Shown here one piece after another: positions 28,938 to 37,274 of a stretch of 37,309 nt of DNA (positions within the stretch are counted from its first letter, which is position 1; every line of letters begins with the position of its first letter). Origin of the DNA: Candidatus Nealsonbacteria bacterium CG23_combo_of_CG06-09_8_20_14_all_40_13 (GTDB taxonomy: Bacteria; Patescibacteriota; UBA1384; UBA12157_A; GCA-002773005); the NCBI GenBank assembly GCA_002771215.1, contig PCRM01000039.1:1-37309 (forward strand), given 5' to 3'. The position numbers and the translations under genes are program-made. The notes under the pieces are model-generated. The model was not told the DNA's origin and did not search any database. It saw only the letters and a list, made by a program, of their open reading frames with translations.

Positions 28938-29293
28938 CTTCTAAAAACGAAATAGACGCCTGCAATAATTAGAACAACGCCTGCTATCCTTACCGGTGAG
29001 ATAGTTTCATGTAAAAAGGCCCAAGACAAAAATAAAATTAAAATATAGCCCAAAGAGAGCAAGGGATAAGCGATAGATAAATCAACTTTGGACAAAATCA
29101 TCACCCAAAGGACAGACGACAAAACATAAAGAAACAAGCCAAGCAAAATCATTGGCGCGGTAAAGGCCTTGTATAAAAAAGTGGCAATTGGCATATTACT
29201 GTAAGAACCAATGTGGTTAATCGCTTGTTTTATCAGAAATTGACCAGCAACACCCAAGGGAATGTTGATTAAAATTAGTAAAAGACTAGACAT
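28934..29293 (-). CDS. Small 4-TM EamA/SMR-like membrane protein (ArnE/ArnF-like flippase-subunit candidate)
   Basis: 119 aa with four hydrophobic helices. Overlaps the oxidoreductase and rfbD genes and lies next to the GT-C gene. Confidence 0.55.
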   Translation of the reverse strand: MSSLLLILINIPLGVAGQFLIKQAINHIGSYSNMPIATFLYKAFTAPMILLGLFLYVLSSVLWVMILSKVDLSIAYPLLSLGYILILFLSWAFLHETISPVRIAGVVLIIAGVYFVFRS

Positions 29294-30137
29294 TGTTCTC
29301 CTTCATATAATCCTTTAAAGCGCTTTGCCAAGAACGTGGTTTTATTTTAAACGTTTTTTGAAATTTATGCGTATTTAAAACAGTATAATTTGGCCGAGGC
29401 GCGCCGCCGGGCTTAATTTTAGACCATTGCTGAGTTGTTATCGGGATAATTTTGACGTTATTTTTATTTTTTAATTTTAAAATCTTTTGGGCAAACTGGA
29501 ACCAAGAACAAGAACCTGAATTTGTAAAATGATAAAGTCCATATTTTTGTGTCAAAATAAGCTTGGATAGACCCCTGGCTAAATCCAAAGTGTAAGTTGG
29601 GCTACCAAACTGATCGGAAACTACATTAATCTCTTTTTTGGTTTTTGTTAAATTTAAAATGGTTTTGGGAAAATTCTTGCCTTCGCCGTAAAGCCAGGCA
29701 GTGCGGACAATGAAAAATTTTTTCAATATTTTTTGCACTTGCCTTTCGCCGGCTAATTTTGATTGGCCATAGATACCCAAAGGATTGGTTTTGCCTGCCT
29801 CAGAATAAGGCGTTTTCTTTCTGCCGTCGAAGACGTAATCAGTAGAAATATAAACCATCGCCGCGCTAATTTTTTTGGCTGCTGCCGCCACATTGGCCGC
29901 GCCGCCGCGGTTAACTTTGAAAGCCAATTTTTGATTCAACTCTGAACCATCAACATCGGTGTAGGCAGCGCAGTGAATAATAACTTGAGGGGAAATTTTT
30001 AAAATTTTTTTTAAAACCTCTTTTTTATCGGTAATATCCATCTGTTCTTTGTCAACAAAAAAAGAATCCTTTTCTGGTAAAACTTTTTTTAAAGCCCGGC
30101 CTAATTGTCCATTGCCGCCGGTAACTAATACTCGCAT
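29286..30137 (-). CDS. rfbD: dTDP-4-dehydrorhamnose reductase
   Basis: MRVLVTGGNGQLG, STDYVFDG, YGQSKLAGE (YxxxK). ATG 30137 with an AAGGAG SD is preferred to TTG 30155. Confidence 0.85.
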   Translation of the reverse strand: MRVLVTGGNGQLGRALKKVLPEKDSFFVDKEQMDITDKKEVLKKILKISPQVIIHCAAYTDVDGSELNQKLAFKVNRGGAANVAAAAKKISAAMVYISTDYVFDGRKKTPYSEAGKTNPLGIYGQSKLAGERQVQKILKKFFIVRTAWLYGEGKNFPKTILNLTKTKKEINVVSDQFGSPTYTLDLARGLSKLILTQKYGLYHFTNSGSCSWFQFAQKILKLKNKNNVKIIPITTQQWSKIKPGGAPRPNYTVLNTHKFQKTFKIKPRSWQSALKDYMKENNV

Positions 30138-30151
30138 TTTTAAACTCCTTT

Positions 30152-31173
30152 TCAAACATACTCCTTATAAATCTGGCTGGCAAGACTGCGACTCAGTTTG
30201 TAGCTATTGCAATGTTGCAATAGTCCTAAGTAAGAGGACAGATTTTTTCGGTTGGCTCTTTTGAACATTCTTCTTTTAGTTTTGGTTCTCAAGAGCCGAT
30301 AGTGGGGCAAAACTACATAACTCAAGAAATCAATTCCTTGTTTTAATTTTCGAATAATAATTTTATTAGGATGTACTTTAAGTTTTAACTTGTTGTTCAA
30401 AAAATGCTCTATAACCTCGATTAAAGATTTTAATTTCTCCAAATCACTGCCTAAAACCACAAAATCATCGCAATAGCACAGGTAATATTTTGCGCCAGAG
30501 GCGCATCCGCCTTTGGCGGAAATTTTCAGGTTGTGCTTAATAAATTTATCAAGTACATCAAGATAAATGTTGGCAAAAAGCTGGGAAGTTAAATTGCCGA
30601 TTGGGATACCCCTATTAACTCTCTCTCTCTCTCTGGATTTCCAAAGCTCAAAATAATATTCCAAAGCAAATCCAGAGTATCTTTTTCGAAAACTTTTTTC
30701 TTAATCAGCTCAAACAAAATATGATGATCAACTGAATTAAAAAACTTCTTGATATCGCACTTTAACGCCCAACATTCGCCAATATAATTTTTCGATACCT
30801 TTCGAGTAAAACTTTCCAACCTATCAACCGCCTTATGTGTTCCCTTTTTATTCCAACAAGAATAAGAATCATAAATAAACCCTTTATCAAATATCGGATA
30901 CAAAACTCTGTAAATTGCGTGGTGAACAATTCTATCCTTGACACAGGCCTTGTGAATATTTCTTACTTTTGGGTCAGTAATAAAAAATGAGGTATAATTT
31001 GAATGTCGGTAAGTTCTGTTTTTTAGTTCAAAATGCAAACTAAACAGATTATCTTCTAAATTCCGCTCAAAAATTTGGACATCTGATTTTTTACATTTAC
31101 CCTTGCGAAATTCCTGCCAACTGGCAAATAAATTTTCTAAACTAATAATTTTACAAAAAAGATTATTATGCAA
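30152..31173 (-). CDS. DGR-type reverse transcriptase, interrupted by a frameshift in an (AG)8 tract (two ORFs: 30589-31173 and 30152-30664)
   Basis: N-terminal ORF has LENLFASWQEFRKGK and RT motifs 1-3. C-terminal ORF has RGIPIGNLTSQLFANIYL (the (I/L)GxxxSQ motif typical of DGR RTs) and YCDDFVV (YxDD). The frames join if one AG unit is removed, giving about 339 aa. Apparent TTG start at 31173. Confidence 0.8.
30619..30634. repeat. (CT)8 / (AG)8 dinucleotide repeat at the RT frameshift site
   Basis: Read directly: aa-ctctctctctctctct-gg. Confidence 0.95.
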
Positions 31174-31524
31174 AATGAAATTCCTTTATTTCAAAAAATA
31201 TATGACTTTTATAAACTATTTTATGCTTGCATTGATAATTTCTCCAAAAAATCTCGCGAAACTTTAGCGTCAAAAATAGAAAATACTATTATTGGGCTCT
31301 TAGAATCAGTCGCATCGGCTGCATATACCAACCAAAATGAAAAGTATAGTTCCATCCTGAATGCTTCTGCCAAAGTGGATTTTCTTAAAATTCTTTTCAG
31401 ACTTTGTTACGAATTAAAAATTATTAACCAAAAGAAATACCTTCTGATGGAAGAAAAATCACAGGAAATCGGTCGTATGCTTGGCGGTTGGATTAAATCA
31501 TTAAAAACATCAGACCGCTCATAA
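31168..31524 (+). CDS. avd: Avd-like accessory variability determinant (four-helix-bundle / 23S rRNA-intervening-sequence protein family)
   Basis: 118 aa, predicted all-helical, C-terminal IGRMLGGWIKSL resembling the Avd LGxWI motif. Adjacent to TR and RT but on the opposite strand; its ATG (31168) overlaps the RT start codon region. Confidence 0.75.
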   Translation: MQNEIPLFQKIYDFYKLFYACIDNFSKKSRETLASKIENTIIGLLESVASAAYTNQNEKYSSILNASAKVDFLKILFRLCYELKIINQKKYLLMEEKSQEIGRMLGGWIKSLKTSDRS

Positions 31525-31536
31525 AACGGTCTGATG
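31508..31536 (-). terminator. Perfect 10-bp hairpin abutting the TR; terminator-like on the minus strand
   Basis: CATCAGACCG-ctcataaaa-CGGTCTGATG. On the minus strand it is followed by TTTTTAA. The loop contains the avd stop codon. Confidence 0.5.
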
Positions 31537-31538
31537 AG

Positions 31539-31670
31539 AAATTCCCACGGGACGCACAGCCCTGTTGTTCCAGTGATTATCGACATTGTTGTAGTTCACA
31601 TCCGCAAGTCCACCGTTGTCAGAGTTACCACCATTGAGACGGTTTGAAGCGTCCTTGAAAATTTATTTGT
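31539..31670 (-). repeat. DGR template repeat (TR)
   Basis: Non-coding copy of 32005-32136 (offset 466). On the minus strand it carries seven AAC codons in the VR frame, all of which differ in the VR. The 5' boundary is fuzzy and may extend to about 31680. Confidence 0.85.
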
Positions 31671-31917
31671 TCTCGTCAATCAGCCACTGTCCCTTGATCA
31701 CTCTTGGGGCTGTATTTTATTTGAAAGTACCCCGATAATTCGGAGATCTTTTCTAAAAACAGATAAGGAGTTTCTTTTCTTTAATGGCAATTCTTTGAAG
31801 CCTTGGCCGCAAAGTTTATAACCATTAAAAGGAATCAAGTATTATTCTTAAGCCATAGCCGAAGAAGCAAACTTGTTCCAAAAACATTTTATCAAAAAAT
31901 GAGAAAATTACAAAAAT

Positions 31918-31946
31918 GGCGGGGAACCTAATGCAGGTTCCCCGCC
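31918..31946 (-). terminator. G+C-rich 11-bp hairpin downstream of the target gene/VR (terminator and/or DGR-associated stem-loop)
   Basis: GGCGGGGAACC-taatgca-GGTTCCCCGCC, followed by ATTTTTG on the minus strand. It lies about 50-75 nt past the stop codon. Confidence 0.5.
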
Positions 31947-31993
31947 GAAAGATAGGGGTCCAAGAGACCAAAAGAACCAAAGGATCAAAAAGC

Positions 31994-32932
31994 CTAAGCG
32001 TCCAAAACTCCCACGGGACGCACAGCCCTGTAGCCCCAGTGATTATCGACATTGAAGTAGAACGCATCCGCAAGAAAACCGCCGCCAGAGCTACCACCAA
32101 AGAGACGGCTCGAAGCGCCCCTGAAAAACTCCTCGAACCAGACCCAAGTATTGGTCCGGCCGTCTTTTTTGCGGGGTATCCACATGTAAAGCTGTGGGAT
32201 GACGTTGGCCTCGATGGTCTGCTCTAGGCGGAAGGTTACCCCTTCGAACTCCGGACGGGCCTCGAGCGCTGGTCTGATGTGTTCATCCCATTCTGAGGAT
32301 GAGATGTTAAACCGACTGCTTGGCGGACCGGCGTCGGTGTGGGCAATTTTGCCTTCGGTACGAAGAGCTTCAATCACTCCACCAAGGAAGCCTTCGTCGT
32401 TGGCAAACATCTGTCGACCGCCATCGTAAGCCGGCTTGCAGCGGGTGTCGATGAGGACGGTGGTGCCTTCGAAGCGAACTTCTTTGACTATTTCCAACTC
32501 GCCAGCGACGTTACGGCGCTTGATGGAGCCGTCCGCCACCTTCTGCCAGAACCATGACTCGGGTTTGATCTTCCAGCCGGGAAATTTTGATCCATGCGTG
32601 AAGACAATCCTGGGTAAAAAGTGGGGCTTCAATCCCAGCTTGGCCCATTGCATGACGCGCTTTTCGCCAAACTGTTTCAGTGTTGCCGCAAACTGTGACA
32701 AGTCGAATGTCTCGTTGAAGAAAGCGCCGAGAGCATTATTCTCGGCTTGGACCAACTGATCAAGCCAGTTGATTTTCGAACGAATCAGCACATTCCGCAA
32801 ACCTTCTGATAGTTGTGCTGAATGTCCAATCCAGAACAATGCATCTTCCTCAGAGAGATCATCGGGTAAAATTTCCGTAATCCTACCGATAATCCTTCTT
32901 TGGGTTTTTAAGGTGAGGGTGGTCCGAGACAT
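31994..32932 (-). CDS. DGR variable (target) protein with C-terminal VR; likely C-type-lectin-fold ligand-binding domain; no signal peptide seen
   Basis: 312-aa ORF with GGAGG SD. The C-terminal ...WVWFEEFFRGASSRLFGGSSGGGFLADAFYFNVDNHWGYRAVRPVGVLDA is encoded by the VR. Visibly more G+C-rich than its neighbours. Confidence 0.8.
   Translation of the reverse strand: MSRTTLTLKTQRRIIGRITEILPDDLSEEDALFWIGHSAQLSEGLRNVLIRSKINWLDQLVQAENNALGAFFNETFDLSQFAATLKQFGEKRVMQWAKLGLKPHFLPRIVFTHGSKFPGWKIKPESWFWQKVADGSIKRRNVAGELEIVKEVRFEGTTVLIDTRCKPAYDGGRQMFANDEGFLGGVIEALRTEGKIAHTDAGPPSSRFNISSSEWDEHIRPALEARPEFEGVTFRLEQTIEANVIPQLYMWIPRKKDGRTNTWVWFEEFFRGASSRLFGGSSGGGFLADAFYFNVDNHWGYRAVRPVGVLDA
32005..32136 (-). 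repeat. DGR variable repeat (VR)
   Basis: Near-identical to the TR. 22 mismatches in the core, 19 at TR adenines (minus-strand sense). An identical 22-nt block CAGGGCTGTGCGTCCCGTGGGA lies at the 3' end. Confidence 0.85.
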
Positions 32933-33095
32933 TTCGGGTGTTCCTCCTTTGCGCCACCTGCCTGCCGATGAGGCGAGGTTCAGGAATTTACGCGCTTCTT
33001 GCTCTCCTTAGAGCTTATTTAATCAGGATAAAATAGCCGTTTCCCTGGCCAAATAAGCTCCAAGGAGTATTTTCAAGGTTCAATTCTAACACTAA

Positions 33096-33124
33096 AGTAT
33101 AGCATAAATATGAGAAAAAGTCAA
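33096..33124 (-). promoter_or_regulatory. Sigma70-like promoter for the DGR target gene
   Basis: Minus strand TTGACT (33124-33119), a 17-nt spacer, then TATACT (33101-33096), about 160 nt upstream of the ATG at 32932. Confidence 0.45.
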
Positions 33125-33342: not shown

Positions 33343-34341
33343 CTATTTGTTATAAATCTTTTCCGCTTCGGCTTTTAGTTTTTTCCACCAGGCCGGGTTT
33401 TGGCGATACCAAGCCACGGTTTGGGCAAAAAGTTTTTTAATATCTTTTGAGGGCCGCCAGCCCAACCGTTTTATTTTTTGTGCTGAAAGCCCGTAACGAA
33501 AGTCGTGTTGTGGCCGCGGGTCAGGTACAAACTCAATCCAATCCTTGGGGTCAATTTTCATCGCCTGGCACAAAATTTCGGCGACATCGCGGTTTCTGAT
33601 TTCGGGCTTGTTGTTGGCCGCGATGTTATAAGCTTGCCCAATTTTGCCTTTTTTAATCAAAAGTTCTATCGCTCGGCAACAATCCTCTACATAAAGCCAG
33701 TCGCGCACCTGCAAACCCCTACCCCAAACCGGCATTTTTTTACCCAAAAATACATTAGTGATGTAGCGAGGCAGGGCTTTTTCTGGATGTTGGCGAGGAC
33801 CAAAATTGTTGGTCGGCCGGACAACGATTACCGGTACTCCTTTTTTGGCATACTCACGAGCCAGTTTGTCGGCTTGGGCTTTAGATTTGGGATAATCGGA
33901 TTTTAAATAGCGAAAGCGCCGGTCGGCATCATTTTCTTTAAAAAAGCCATTTTTGATAGAGCCGTAAATTTCATCGGAAGAGATATGAATGAATTTTGAT
34001 AATTTCGTTTTGGTCGCTGCCTCCAAAAGCGTCCTTGTCCCCTTAACGTTGGTTTTGTAAAAAATTTCTGGGTGTTTTTCAGCCCGTGTGTTGTGGCTTT
34101 CAGCGGCAAAATGAACAACGATGTCAATATTCTTCAACAAATCATTCACAAGTTTTCTATTGCAAATATCGCCCTTGACAAATTCAATTTTTTTTAGCAC
34201 TCCCTTTATATTGTCAGTGTCCCCGGCATAAGTCAAAGCATCGAGCACTACAATTTTGTCTTGGGGGTGCTTTTTGACCCAAAAGTGGACGAAGTTGCTC
34301 CCAATGAACCCCGCTCCGCCAGTAATTAGAATCTTTTGCAT
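33343..34341 (-). CDS. rfbB: dTDP-glucose 4,6-dehydratase
   Basis: MQKILITGGAGFIGSNF, catalytic YPKSKAQAD (YxxxK), RmlB colinearity. ATG 34341 is preferred; the 27-codon ORF-track extension is encoded by an A-tract repeat array. Confidence 0.9.
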   Translation of the reverse strand: MQKILITGGAGFIGSNFVHFWVKKHPQDKIVVLDALTYAGDTDNIKGVLKKIEFVKGDICNRKLVNDLLKNIDIVVHFAAESHNTRAEKHPEIFYKTNVKGTRTLLEAATKTKLSKFIHISSDEIYGSIKNGFFKENDADRRFRYLKSDYPKSKAQADKLAREYAKKGVPVIVVRPTNNFGPRQHPEKALPRYITNVFLGKKMPVWGRGLQVRDWLYVEDCCRAIELLIKKGKIGQAYNIAANNKPEIRNRDVAEILCQAMKIDPKDWIEFVPDPRPQHDFRYGLSAQKIKRLGWRPSKDIKKLFAQTVAWYRQNPAWWKKLKAEAEKIYNK

Positions 34342-34412
34342 AGTGATTTTTTTAATTTTTTCAATTTTGCATTTTACATTATCATTTTGAGATTTGCATT
34401 TTGCACTTTGAA
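34342..34412. repeat. 7-nt-periodic T/A-tract array in the rfbC-rfbB spacer
   Basis: tcaattttgcattttacattatcattttgagatttgcattttgcactttgaatt. Shares CAAAATGCAAA (minus-strand sense) with the groES-groEL spacer array. Confidence 0.6.
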
Positions 34413-34982
34413 TTATCGCCATTTATATCCAATCTCCGGGCTATTATAAGGCAAGCGTTCTTCGTCTGGGCTTTCGGCATTATACGGCTCTGTCGTATGA
34501 TAAAAAAGCAAAACCGGCTCTTTTGACAAAACTTGATAGCCGTGGGCGATGCCTTTAGGAATCAGGACTAATTTATAATTATTTTCGCCGGCTAAAATAA
34601 CTTGAGTTTTTTTAAAAGTCAGTGAATTTTTTCTTAAGTCATATAGGACTATTTTTGCTTTACCGGTAGCAACAAACCAGAGGTCATCTTGTTTGTGATG
34701 AAAATGAAAACCTTTGATTGTTCCTTGATAAGCGACCGTAAAAGTAGTTTGACCAAATTTTTGAAGTAGTTTATCGTCTTGACGTAAAACTTCAACGAGA
34801 AAACCAGGCTTTATTTTGGCGGCGAGAATACCCCGCCTCTTGGGGCGAGGATGAAAGCCGCCGAAAGAACTCGCCCGAAGGGATACCCCGTCCCTTGGGA
34901 CGGGGTAGTTCATTTTCGTCTTTCGAACATCGGGTATATCACGATGGATTTTTAATTTTTTGATTTTTACACCTTCAATCAT
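34413..34982 (-). CDS. rfbC: dTDP-4-dehydrorhamnose 3,5-epimerase carrying a 39-codon in-frame insertion
   Basis: Cupin core GFHFHHKQDDLWFV...IPKGIAHGY. Removing residues 21-59 restores IPDVRGFLVEVLR, which matches the usual RmlC DxRG strand. Confidence 0.8.
   Translation of the reverse strand: MIEGVKIKKLKIHRDIPDVRKTKMNYPVPRDGVSLRASSFGGFHPRPKRRGILAAKIKPGFLVEVLRQDDKLLQKFGQTTFTVAYQGTIKGFHFHHKQDDLWFVATGKAKIVLYDLRKNSLTFKKTQVILAGENNYKLVLIPKGIAHGYQVLSKEPVLLFYHTTEPYNAESPDEERLPYNSPEIGYKWR
34806..34922. repeat. 117-nt G+C-rich palindromic element inserted in frame in rfbC
   Basis: Minus strand: TACCCCGTCCC-aa-GGGACGGGGTA (11-bp stem), GGGCGAG...CTCGCCC, GGCGGC...GCCGCC, ending ...GGCGGGGTA. No stop codon in the rfbC frame. 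Confidence 0.75.
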
Positions 34983-35025: not shown

Positions 35026-35406
35026 TCATTTATTCAAGTTAATTATCCGTTTAAATCTTACTCCTTTGCTTGTGAAATTAATGAGTAATCCTAATTTTAA
35101 TTTCATACTTTTTAGATAAGAAAATATTTGTTCTATATCTCTTCTGAAAAAATGGTCACCGACTTTCAATTCAACTGCAATGGCATTATCAATTAGAAAA
35201 TCTAAAATATATGTGTCAAAAACTTTGTTGTTTATTTTCAGCGACACCCGAACTTGACTCTTGAAATTTTTTTGTTTTTGTTTCAAAATTTCCGCTAATG
35301 CTTTTTGATATGTGCTTTCTCTTAATCCGGGCCCGAGAGTGTTAAAAACTTCATAACAACAACCGATTATTTCATAACTTTCCTTTTTGTAAATGATTTT
35401 TGCCAT
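35026..35406 (-). CDS. GxxExxY family protein (PD-(D/E)XK-like)
   Basis: 126 aa; ESYEIIGCCYEVFNTLGPGLRESTYQKAL contains G-L-R-E-S-T-Y, the family's eponymous motif; ...AVELK... Confidence 0.7.
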   Translation of the reverse strand: MAKIIYKKESYEIIGCCYEVFNTLGPGLRESTYQKALAEILKQKQKNFKSQVRVSLKINNKVFDTYILDFLIDNAIAVELKVGDHFFRRDIEQIFSYLKSMKLKLGLLINFTSKGVRFKRIINLNK

Positions 35407-35482: not shown

Positions 35483-36271
35483 TTAGTAAATTCGTAGTCC
35501 CTTCTTCCTTGCCCAATAAACTGCGGTTTTAAATAAACTATCAAAGGTGCCGGCATCCGACCAAAAACCTTCCAGTGTCGCCCAAGCTAATTTGCCGGCT
35601 TTAACGTAGCAATTATTTACATCAGTTATTTCCAGCTCGCCGCGGGCTGATGGTTTACATTTTCGAATAAAATCAAAAACCTTGTTGTCATAGATGTAAA
35701 GCCCAGTGACTGCGAAATTTGATTTTGGCTTTTTGGGCTTTTCCTCGATTTTGACAATTTTATGCGTTTCCGGAGTTATCTTGTTTTGAGTTTTTCGTTT
35801 TAAGTTTTGAGTTTGAAACACCGGCACGCCAAAGCGCTGGGGGTCGGTTACTTCTTTCAAAAAAACCATTGCTCCCTTCCCCGAAGGGGAGCCTTTGGCT
35901 TTAAATTTTTTTACTGGTTTAGAAATATCGGCATCAGTACAATTGTCGCCTAAAATAACGGTGACTGGCCCGCCCTCAGCAAAATCTTCACAAAGTGATA
36001 AGGCCTGAGCAATACCGCCCTCTTTTTCCTGATATGTGTATTCTAAATGTTTAAGCCCTAATTTTTTGCCATTACCCAAAACTCTGATATAGTCCCCTGC
36101 ATAAGGGCCGCCTGTCACAATAATTACATCTTTAATTCCAGCTTTAACGAGGGTTTGAATCGGATAAAATACCATAGGGGAATCAAAAATCGGCAATAGG
36201 TGTTTTGATGTAGCATAGGTAAGAGGATATAGCCTTGTCCCTAAACCACCAGCAAGTACTACTCCCTTCAT
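35483..36271 (-). CDS. rfbA: Glucose-1-phosphate thymidylyltransferase (short form) with in-frame repeat insertion
   Basis: MKGVVLAGGLGTRLYPLT, EEKPKKPKSNFAVTGLYIYD. The segment QTQNLKRKTQNK is encoded by the 32-nt repeat copy at 35783-35814. Confidence 0.85.
   Translation of the reverse strand: MKGVVLAGGLGTRLYPLTYATSKHLLPIFDSPMVFYPIQTLVKAGIKDVIIVTGGPYAGDYIRVLGNGKKLGLKHLEYTYQEKEGGIAQALSLCEDFAEGGPVTVILGDNCTDADISKPVKKFKAKGSPSGKGAMVFLKEVTDPQRFGVPVFQTQNLKRKTQNKITPETHKIVKIEEKPKKPKSNFAVTGLYIYDNKVFDFIRKCKPSARGELEITDVNNCYVKAGKLAWATLEGFWSDAGTFDSLFKTAVYWARKKGLRIY
35783..35814. repeat. 32-nt perfect inverted copy of 2680-2711, inside rfbA
   Basis: gttttgagtttttcgttttaagttttgagttt equals the reverse complement of aaactcaaaacttaaaacgaaaaactcaaaac. 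Confidence 0.9.
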
Positions 36272-37113
36272 TATATTAACTCCTTTCTAATGGCTAAATA
36301 GAAATTGTGTTTCCTATTTAGATAATATTGGGCATTTAGATAAAGCCAATCAAAAATTCTCAAAGCCTGTTTATTGCCTCTATATCGCAAAGCAAAATGA
36401 TTGCTTTTTTTAATATTGCGCGTCAATTTAGTTCGATTTAAATTTAGGTACCTGATTAGGAATTTTTGAATATTTGATAACAAACCCTTAGAACCAACAA
36501 TTTGAAAAAGAAGTGAACGCTTTTTTTTATCCCACAATATACTGCCATCTCCTTCGAATACCCCAAGAATGAAGGATTTAATAATTTGTTCGTCATTATC
36601 TCTTTTTAATATTTCTGGAAAATTCTCCTTCGTAGATTTATTGGTTTTTATACCAATCTCCTCAATCCTTCTAACTAATTTAGCGCTGGTTATCAAAAGG
36701 GCGATTTGAAAATATGTTTTTCTTGTTTTTTTTAGTTGAGTTTTCATCTTAATTAATTTTCCTGTGTAGAATAAAAGCTTTCTAATTTTCTGTAAAACAT
36801 CCTTATCTTTAATTGAAACTTTAATTCCAAATCTGGGCGATTTATCGTTCCCCCTCACAAACCCATCACTAACAAGCCAACCTAAAACCCAAGCATTTTC
36901 ACTATTAATCTGATCGAAATAATTTTCATTGACATGATATTTTCTTTGGCCCAGCTTTCGAGTTTTGTCTTTTGCTTTGAGTCCATATTGTCTCATTCTA
37001 TGTGAAATCACCCATTGAGAAATTTTTAATTCTTTTGCGATTAAATCTTGCGACAGATTTTTAATAAAATATCTGTCAATTATAAAAGTTTTTGAAATTT
37101 GGTATTTTCTCAT
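36271..37113 (-). CDS. LAGLIDADG-family homing-endonuclease-like protein with N-terminal HTH
   Basis: Two LAGLIDADG motifs, LGWLVSDGFV and LGVFEGDGSI, about 100 aa apart. N-terminal IAKELKISQWVISHRMRQYGL is HTH-like. ATG 37113; the stop forms a TAATG overlap with the rfbA start. Confidence 0.75.
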   Translation of the reverse strand: MRKYQISKTFIIDRYFIKNLSQDLIAKELKISQWVISHRMRQYGLKAKDKTRKLGQRKYHVNENYFDQINSENAWVLGWLVSDGFVRGNDKSPRFGIKVSIKDKDVLQKIRKLLFYTGKLIKMKTQLKKTRKTYFQIALLITSAKLVRRIEEIGIKTNKSTKENFPEILKRDNDEQIIKSFILGVFEGDGSILWDKKKRSLLFQIVGSKGLLSNIQKFLIRYLNLNRTKLTRNIKKSNHFALRYRGNKQALRIFDWLYLNAQYYLNRKHNFYLAIRKELI

Positions 37114-37198
37114 CAATGCATCCCAATCAAAATGACGCCTTTCATATTTTCTCCTGTAGATTGAGGATATTTTATAATAGCCAAACTGTCAAATATAA

Positions 37199-37274
37199 TG
37201 GCGCCCTCGGGCCGATTCGAACGGCTAACCTTCAGATCCGCAATCTGACGCTCTATCCATTGAGCTACGAGGGC
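37199..37274 (-). tRNA. tRNA-Arg (anticodon GCG by manual fold), 3' CCA encoded
   Basis: Hand-folded cloverleaf: acceptor GCCCTCG/CGAGGGC, D arm GCTC-AATGGATA-GAGC, anticodon arm TCAGA-TTGCGGA-TCTGA, T arm (A)GCCG-TTCGAAT-CGGC(C), discriminator G, CCA. Confidence 0.8.

Follow-up and report, generated by a model that had tools for sequence, protein, structure and literature searches.

Introduction

To our knowledge, diversity-generating retroelements (DGRs) are the only natural system of targeted protein hypermutation in prokaryotes. The DGR of Bordetella phage BPP-1 (gene order mtd-avd-TR-brt), the model case of mutagenic retrohoming, comprises a template repeat (TR), a variable repeat (VR) at the 3′ end of the target gene, the accessory gene avd and a reverse transcriptase (RT) gene. 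Contingency loci, which are known from Haemophilus, Neisseria, Campylobacter and Helicobacter and include the methyltransferase 'phasevarions', are genes made phase-variable by repeats. Here we describe a DGR in a 37,309-nt stretch of DNA ('the window'; GenBank contig PCRM01000039.1) from a Candidatus Nealsonbacteria-like groundwater bacterium of the candidate phyla radiation (CPR). The RT gene of this element is thrown out of frame by a simple-sequence repeat, and we consider it likely that this repeat acts as a phase-variable switch on the RT, gating mutagenic retrohoming.

Wu et al. 2018 (PMC5758913) assign 90% of CPR DGRs to the architecture termed B3, in which avd lies on the reverse strand between TR and RT. 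Neither they nor Roux et al. 2021 (PMC8144416), a 2024 survey, Doré et al. 2024 (PMC10907252) or a 2021 RT review mention, in the portions available, a repeat tract or a frameshift in the RT. Searching bioRxiv full text for DGRs together with frameshift or phase returned no description of a repeat in the RT, in a literature search that was incomplete. A 2026 theory preprint, in the part available, predicts ON/OFF oscillation of DGR activity and names no such mechanism. We provisionally regard a repeat-based RT switch in DGRs as previously undescribed.

A DGR of the CPR-specific type

The locus is a DGR of the CPR-specific type, and is chromosomal. Its main components are the following.

30152-31173, minus strand: DGR RT gene, split into two open reading frames (ORFs), 30589-31173 (194 aa) and 30152-30664 (170 aa); RVT_1 match at 3e-23
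30619-30634, minus strand: (AG)8 simple-sequence repeat within the RT gene, in a loop just upstream of GIPIGNLTSQ, throwing the RT out of frame
31168-31524, plus strand: avd accessory gene (118 aa, pI 9.2), on the opposite strand to RT, TR, VR and target
31539-31660, minus strand: TR, non-coding, with 33 adenines and seven AAC codons in the VR register
31994-32932, minus strand: DGR target gene (312 aa), with a helical N-terminal region, a predicted FGE-type C-type-lectin-like (CLec-like) variable domain and no Pfam match
32005-32126, minus strand: VR, target codons 270-309
32009-32030, minus strand: G/C-rich block CAGGGCTGTGCGTCCCGTGGGA at the 3′ end of the VR, resembling an initiation of mutagenic homing (IMH) element and identical to TR 31543-31564

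Read along the minus strand, the order is target with VR, TR, inverted avd and RT. This is the B3 order as defined in PMC5758913, with the target upstream and avd on the reverse strand between TR and RT. The same succession of VR, TR, (avd) and RT was found in four related loci (L018, L019, L025 and L030) and in about 30 metagenomic loci, the inverted avd position being repeated there. The idea that the inverted avd is a new arrangement was dropped, since B3 already includes it, and as a DGR the element is unremarkable within a well-described group. The first-pass annotation, made from the sequence alone, had mentioned neither the plus-strand position of avd nor the division of the RT gene into two ORFs. 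An intact, translatable RT gene is what the window copy lacks; every other defining feature of a DGR, apart from the target fold, is present.

A repeat search of the window recovered the pair 31539-31661 and 32005-32127 as 123 nt of 82% identity at an offset of 466. The first-pass annotation had described near-identical copies of about 130 bp; the repeat and its offset stand, but the core is ~122 nt rather than 132, with similarity decaying past 31660. Its count of 22 mismatches, 19 of them at TR adenines, was reproduced on recounting (19 of 33 adenines against 3 of 89 other positions, Fisher p = 1.0e-10), and all seven AAC codons are altered in the VR, as it had stated (to AGC, AGC, GGC, TTC, TTC, GGC and TAC). 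The three differences at non-adenine positions, on the minus strand, are G>T at 31611, G>T at 31610 and T>C at 31598; several such substitutions are common in CPR DGRs, according to the available portion of Wu et al. 2018 (PMC5758913). The TR has a stop in the VR register, in agreement with its description as non-coding, and the window holds no further VR-like copy templated by it. The G/C-rich block of 22 nt that had been placed beside the stop codon is indeed the same in both copies, but ends 12 nt before the stop. TR and VR diverge right past this block, as IMH and IMH* would predict.

The accessory protein and the RT agree with this assignment. The product of 31168-31524, proposed earlier to be Avd, scores 82.1 bits against NF033474 DivGenRetAVD (cutoff 80) and 74.5 bits against PF22296 bAvd (1.1e-20; cutoff 40). 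The RT motifs reported at first pass are in place, IGNLTSQ at 30601-30581 and YCDD at 30475-30464. The best match of the RT in the PDB is 8ub7 (a 328-aa RT; E-value 4.7e-39), which we take to be the BPP-1 RT (bRT), and the RT lies far nearer to it than to group II intron RTs (5e-15) or retron-type RTs (1e-14). This answers the refuting condition set at first pass, an RT that groups with those of group II introns or retrons. No DGR RT model was matched in NCBIfam, where the best match was a group II intron RT model at 141 bits against a cutoff of 300. With an adenine-specific TR/VR pair, an Avd above the curated NCBIfam cutoff and an RT nearest to that of BPP-1, the central call of the first-pass annotation, a DGR, holds.

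Retrohoming has left a directly visible trace between populations. Three contigs from other samples (L001-L003) are the same as the window over 3.9-5.6 kb save for 21 positions, all of them in the VR. Compared with the TR, this second VR allele has 20 differences, all 20 at TR adenines; the two VR alleles differ from each other at 18 TR-adenine sites and at the three non-adenine sites of the window allele. Two VR alleles in otherwise identical DNA imply at least two independent retrohoming events in the lineage, and the description of the DGR as recently active is borne out by these other metagenomes. The window VR is also common to haplotypes separated by point mutations elsewhere. VR turnover in one set of contigs, with a constant VR across haplotypes in another, indicates that diversification is episodic.

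As a separate observation, the 5′ part of the TR in one assembly, L005, carries VR bases at five adenine positions (31667, 31656, 31652, 31645 and 31643), which reflects either a TR/VR assembly chimera or VR-to-TR conversion.

An (AG)8 tract splits the RT gene

The DGR had been called complete and active, and the RT frameshift had been treated as something to correct. Neither adjective is literally true of the window copy, in which the RT is out of frame at (AG)8 and for which an in-frame (AG)7 allele is rare, and we find the frameshift to be the most interesting feature of the locus. The tract is the only dinucleotide repeat of at least five units in the 37-kb window. Removal of one AG unit yields an RT ORF of 339 aa, and the two RT ORFs overlap by 75 nt around the tract (30664-30589).

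Independent assemblies of this strain differ in tract length. With n as the number of AG units, n=8 was found in five contigs (the window included), n=6 in four and n=9 in one, and several of the n=6, n=8 and n=9 contigs have haplotypes that match the window exactly over 4 kb apart from the tract. A wider count came from the N-terminal RT products in a 90%-identity protein cluster, for which contig numbers are approximate. The n=6 product, with the tail 'NPERES*', is encoded by ~16 contigs, the n=8 product, with the tail 'NPERERELIGVSQSAI*', by ~12, and the n=9 product, with the tail 'NPERERES*', by ~6. The n=7 product is a single 339-aa protein (P0210), the same as the frame-corrected RT of the window, and the contig that encodes it (L165) differs from the window in nothing but its (AG)7 tract. 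Only n=7 among these four lengths is in frame, in 1 of ~35 contigs. The in-frame (ON) allele is real but rare in this strain and, judged by its reading frame, the window copy is a DGR in the OFF state. L005, mentioned above for its TR, is an n=6 allele.

Repeat tracts at the same site in related elements

The tract is not confined to this strain. In L018 and L019, whose RTs are 65% and 52% identical to that of the window, pure (AG)9 and (GA)10 tracts occupy the same loop and are in frame. At the protein level, (ER)n is found in the RT loop of 26 of 116 close full-length homologues. The loop varies from 0 to ~25 aa among homologues and has few residues in bRT, indicating that the site tolerates insertions.

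We scanned metagenome DNA, blind to reading frame, for (AG)6 followed after a gap of 4-34 nt by the coding pattern P-x-G-N-x-T-S-Q. At least 80 loci were recovered, forming 78 clusters at 97% nucleotide identity and therefore essentially non-redundant. Among the matches listed, 14 are in frame, 28 are shifted by +1 and 20 by +2, with 18 having too little upstream sequence to score; this split is compatible with a random one (binomial against 1/3, p = 0.08; 62 loci). The out-of-frame RTs are otherwise intact, with N-terminal halves of 176-241 codons and C-terminal halves of 133-165 in the 48 OFF lineages among the matches listed. Between two OFF lineages the ratio of non-synonymous to synonymous substitution rates (dN/dS) is 0.09-0.12, much as in an ON-ON pair (0.08), and OFF loci keep adenine-specific TR/VR divergence. 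Viral contigs scanned for the same repeat-plus-motif pattern gave 0 matches, which fits a cellular CPR element.

Repeats of this kind are concentrated at the RT loop. In 264 kb of CPR DNA chosen by its target genes and not for repeats, dinucleotide repeats of at least six units occur three times, always at the RT loop; outside the loop there is one in 403 kb of related contigs, a (TC)9 in L112 (720-737). With the N-terminal RT half as query, 107 of the 120 best database proteins are N-terminal halves only, 76 of which stop just past an (ER)n run; every one of the closest relatives among these best 120, at 70-82% identity, is split.

ON and OFF alleles also occur together elsewhere. A second strain is represented by L046 and L090 (18-nt tract, OFF) and by L076 (20 nt, ON). 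In a Berkelbacteria strain, the RT is full-length in at least 29 contigs and split in at least 26, and its target cluster of 55 members includes at least seven VR alleles among the 15 members listed.

Other lineages have a different repeat at the same RT loop, a poly-G tract of G10-G11 that leaves the RT out of frame and was reproduced in three samples.

L166 1273-1283: poly-G tract
L167 and L168 722-732: poly-G tract
L169 1462-1471: poly-G tract
L170 1378-1388: poly-G tract

About ten more of the best 120 N-terminal-half proteins end in GGG-type tails, which suggests the same poly-G arrangement.

Two observations on the wider distribution stand apart. Some full-length, in-frame RT alleles of the Berkelbacteria strain (P0182 and P0186) read GLPIDNLTSQ in place of GLPIGNLTSQ, and this Gly-to-Asp change in the DGR signature motif might inactivate the RT by another route. 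(AG)n-bearing RTs are also found in cassettes without detectable avd, where the RT starts directly after the TR (L054, L059, L071, L075, L092, L096 and L098); the repeat is accordingly not limited to the B3 architecture.

Three of the features by which contingency genes are recognised are found here: an intragenic repeat whose unit is not divisible by 3, length polymorphism that toggles the frame, and selection together with repeat enrichment at the site. We lean towards the view that many CPR DGRs carry an evolved contingency switch, in the form of a frameshift-prone (AG)n or poly-G tract in a length-tolerant RT loop.

A candidate phase-variable switch and its alternatives

We propose the following mechanism, the first steps of which are drawn by analogy with BPP-1. 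The TR would be transcribed, and an RT-Avd complex would copy it to cDNA, misincorporating opposite adenines. This cDNA would then take the place of the VR, up to a homing boundary marked by the conserved G/C-rich 3′ block. Retrohoming would thereby rewrite ~26 codon positions on the putative ligand-binding face of the FGE/CLec-like domain of a probably cytoplasmic protein. The (AG)n tract, lying in a length-tolerant and probably surface-exposed loop of the RT, would change length in single units by slipped-strand mispairing, and full-length RT would be made only from tract lengths that join both halves in one frame (n=7 here, and also 4 or 10), every other length being one repeat unit from an in-frame one. 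Hypermutation would be OFF in most cells, with the VR frozen, while a minority flips ON and diversifies the VR. Selection acting in the ON state would keep the RT gene functional. The anatomy of the locus, the adenine bias, the turnover of the VR between populations, the tract-length alleles with the ON allele among them, and the recurrence of split RTs and their purifying selection are direct observations; how fast and how reversibly the tract flips, whether OFF alleles lose RT activity and what adaptive use the tract has are the parts that we infer.

Several points weigh against a switch of this kind. The ON allele of the window strain was met once, on a 1.3-kb contig, and the contig counts may include one assembly deposited in several repositories. 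Consensus contigs show the majority allele only. The in-frame fraction among the scored loci (23%) is slightly below 1/3, which suits drift at a mutational hotspot equally well as a regulated switch, and the link between ON frequency and VR diversity comes from two strains only. ER-bearing RTs are patchy on the tree, with at least 12 state changes among 116 sequences, so the tract has been repeatedly gained and lost. Ribosomal slippage by ±2 could in principle leak full-length RT from OFF alleles, as all (AG)n frames read Arg-Glu. The CLec fold of the target has weak structural support.

The alternative that survives best is that the tract is an accidental, tolerated insertion in the RT loop, and that the frameshifted DGRs are simply inactivated at a hotspot, with no evolved switch and with the cassette of this strain being lost; perhaps inactivation is even favoured for freezing a good VR. 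We think this unlikely. It would account for every consensus assembly of the strain but one being out of frame, for the single VR fixed across haplotypes that differ by point mutations and for the patchy presence of the tract on the RT tree, and degraded cassettes do exist (in L031 and L040 the RT is truncated or has an internal deletion, and no TR was detected). Against it, the out-of-frame RTs of 48 lineages are free of further lesions, and dN/dS between OFF alleles is ~0.1. Nor does it sit well with ON and OFF alleles side by side in three strains, with each OFF allele lying one unit from ON, or with pure tracts of 12-51 nt that at least 80 lineages have kept at a single site and that are nearly absent elsewhere. 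The use of a different repeat, poly-G, in the same loop of other lineages also speaks against an accident.

Recoding offers a different account, in which ribosomal ±2/±1 or transcriptional slippage makes full-length RT and the tract is a dosage rheostat rather than an off switch. The (AG)n tract reads AGA-GAG in every frame, allowing the P-site tRNA to re-pair perfectly after a 2-nt slip, the RT frames overlap around the tract as noted above, and purifying selection on split genes is equally predicted. A programmed site, however, conserves one frame relation, whereas here the relations 0, +1 and +2 all occur (14, 28 and 20 among the matches listed), and alleles needing opposite shifts are found in one strain (n=6 and n=9 against n=8). 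A canonical slippery heptamer or downstream stimulator was not noticed, and the poly-G lineages are better explained by slippage at the DNA level. With all three frame relations represented, a classical programmed frameshift is disfavoured, and we regard recoding as a whole as doubtful.

It is very improbable that the tract length was mis-assembled and the RT is really intact. Repeats are error-prone, a run of N lies 70 nt from the tract in one n=9 contig (L004), and some related contigs have low coverage. Against this, n=8 and n=6 were each recovered in at least four independent assemblies from differing samples, assemblers and repositories, and n=9 in six contigs; tracts of 12-20 nt fit well within Illumina reads; and random error would not put 77% of 62 lineages out of frame with perfect halves. 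Assembly error as the cause of the frameshift was rejected on the replicate assemblies and the allele series. An RT from a group II intron, a retron or a defence system, beside a repeat pair produced by chance or recombinational duplication, is scarcely credible, the sub-cutoff group II intron match being set against adenine-specific substitutions (p = 1e-10), an Avd above cutoff, IGNLTSQ, the same cassette in dozens of loci and an RT 24 orders of magnitude closer to 8ub7 than to group II RTs.

If the RT is indeed governed by a phase-variable repeat, a heritable and reversible RT switch would be a concrete mechanism restraining DGR activity, and targeted hypermutation would itself be phase-variable, a second-order evolvability device. 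Many 'inactive' or overlooked DGRs would be explained, for about three quarters of these elements would escape a pipeline that requires the RT to be intact. Catalogues restricted to intact RTs probably count too few CPR DGRs and misread how active they are. Most database entries near this RT are split halves.

Candidate boundary and transcription elements

Three further elements lie around the TR and past the VR.

31508-31536, minus strand: 13-bp hairpin followed by TTTTT, directly past the TR and overlapping the convergent end of avd (dG -19.3, z -4.7)
31886-31913, minus strand: promoter-like site TTGTAA-16-TAAAAT with TG; consensus match only
31918-31946, minus strand: 13-bp G/C-rich hairpin followed by a T-run, 48 nt past the target stop (dG -26.5 kcal/mol, z -6.2)

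The hairpin at 31918-31946 could be the terminator of the target gene, the counterpart of the hairpin found downstream of the IMH in other DGRs, or both. An IMH/IMH*-like candidate boundary block and a downstream hairpin are both present. In L009 and L015, two uncompensated substitutions in the 3′ arm of this hairpin (at positions corresponding to 31924 and 31928 of the window) would weaken the stem.

The hairpin at 31508-31536 probably terminates transcription from both sides. At the same place past the TR, 21 of 35 related loci have an equivalent hairpin, unrelated in sequence, which is missing from loci with a short TR-avd gap or without avd. Taken with the promoter-like site at 31886-31913, this hairpin suggests a short transcript of the TR by itself.

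The target protein

Homologues of the target comprise 41 close relatives, from CPR bacteria, and 498 representatives in a library of 1.84 billion proteins. Pfam and NCBIfam gave no meaningful family for the target or for any of the 36 family members, and a profile search against PDB sequences returned noise only. At the sequence level, then, nothing nameable resembles the N-terminal ~260 aa, as had been stated. A structural model alters this in part. AlphaFold, run with the family alignment, gave a model with a predicted local distance difference test score (pLDDT) of 91.4, and the top Foldseek matches of this model in the PDB are all FGE-type CLec folds (PvdO, CarF, EgtB, FGE and TvpA, 2y3c, the last itself a DGR target). 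These matches are uniform but weak (E-values 0.01-0.3, template modelling scores 0.25-0.44). Residues ~100 to 312 are likely to form one FGE-type C-type-lectin-like fold, according to this model. Foldseek of the target against viral structures found nothing significant.

The target has no hydrophobic segment (maximum 19-residue Kyte-Doolittle value 0.77), and 6 of 10 long relatives inspected carry its domain as a C-terminal fusion to an AAA_5 P-loop ATPase. The earlier suggestion that the variable protein acts inside the cell is plausible on both grounds, and hydropathy and fusions together would fit an intracellular ligand sensor.

Upstream of the target gene lies one candidate promoter.

33096-33124, minus strand: promoter-like site TTGACT-17-TATACT with extended -10, upstream of the target; consensus match only

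Between this site (33124-33096) and the start codon, in the presumed 5′ untranslated region of the target, is a nearly perfect hairpin of ~27 bp (33004-33067, minus strand; dG -33 kcal/mol, z -6). It is not followed by a T-run and has no match in Rfam.

The G+C content is raised over the whole target gene (52.6%) and not in the VR alone; the window stands at 40%, the RT gene at 33% and avd at 31%. Target homologues elsewhere likewise exceed their surroundings (L018 2289-3224, 61 against 41.5%; L019 784-1701, 61 against 38%; L040 5001-5930, 58 against 43%). This richness may reflect expression or conservation rather than transfer, the GroEL and H+-PPase genes being similarly GC-rich. Horizontal transfer was rejected as the explanation of the GC-rich islands at 3-4 kb and 13-15 kb of the window, which are these two ordinary conserved genes.

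Of 27 target-homologue loci in GTDB representative genomes, 18 (L020-L024, L026-L029, L032-L039) have no RT, Avd or TR within 5 kb. The C-terminal regions of these RT-less homologues vary as much as VRs do, and the genes are either remote targets or orphans of lost cassettes.

Genomic neighbourhood

The cassette is flanked by rmlD and an rmlB-like gene, and interrupts a dTDP-rhamnose gene cluster. The neighbouring features are listed below.

29286-30155: rmlD
33343-34422: rmlB-like gene
34413-34982: rmlC
35026-35406: PD-(D/E)XK nuclease gene
35483-36271: rmlA-like gene
36271-37116: LAGLIDADG-like ORF
37202-37274, minus strand: tRNA gene, the sole Rfam match in the window

In a sister strain (L005, 100-2187), the rmlB-like product is 695 aa long, with an intein inside.

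Comparison with known systems

The window element shares with the BPP-1 DGR the adenine-specific flow from TR to VR, an AAC-rich TR, a VR at the 3′ end of the target, a G/C-rich IMH-like 3′ block, a hairpin past the VR, a small basic helical Avd and an RT with the (I/L)GxxxSQ motif. Unlike the phage element, it is chromosomal in a CPR bacterium, its target is not a tail fibre, and its RT carries a frameshifting repeat. The avd gene is inverted between TR and RT, and what follows the TR is an antisense avd and a terminator-like hairpin rather than a spacer RNA.

With the DGRs of CPR bacteria (Patescibacteria), both the B3 architecture (PMC5758913) and DGR clade 2 (Roux et al. 2021, PMC8144416), it has in common gene order, orientation, a CPR host, targets without recognisable domains and, as noted above, non-adenine substitutions. 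These surveys, in the portions available, deal with 'putatively functional' DGRs; in the lineage of the window RT, by contrast, most alleles are out of frame at the repeat.

A third likeness is to NTPase-linked CLec sensors (Kaur et al. 2020, PMC7159879; Doré et al. 2024, PMC10907252), on account of the AAA_5 fusions among the long relatives and of a target with neither signal peptide nor transmembrane helix. The window target differs in being a stand-alone protein of 312 aa with a short helical N-terminus, and no adjacent effector or NTPase gene was identified.

For the tract itself the nearest counterparts are contingency loci. As in those genes, an intragenic repeat with a unit that is not a multiple of 3 varies in length between near-identical genomes, ON and OFF lie one unit apart, and the gene is under purifying selection; as in phasevarions, the switched gene itself regulates downstream variation. 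The difference lies in what would be switched: in place of a surface antigen or the methylome, the gene here encodes a mutator enzyme, which would set the rate of targeted hypermutation, and its host is an uncultivated CPR bacterium.

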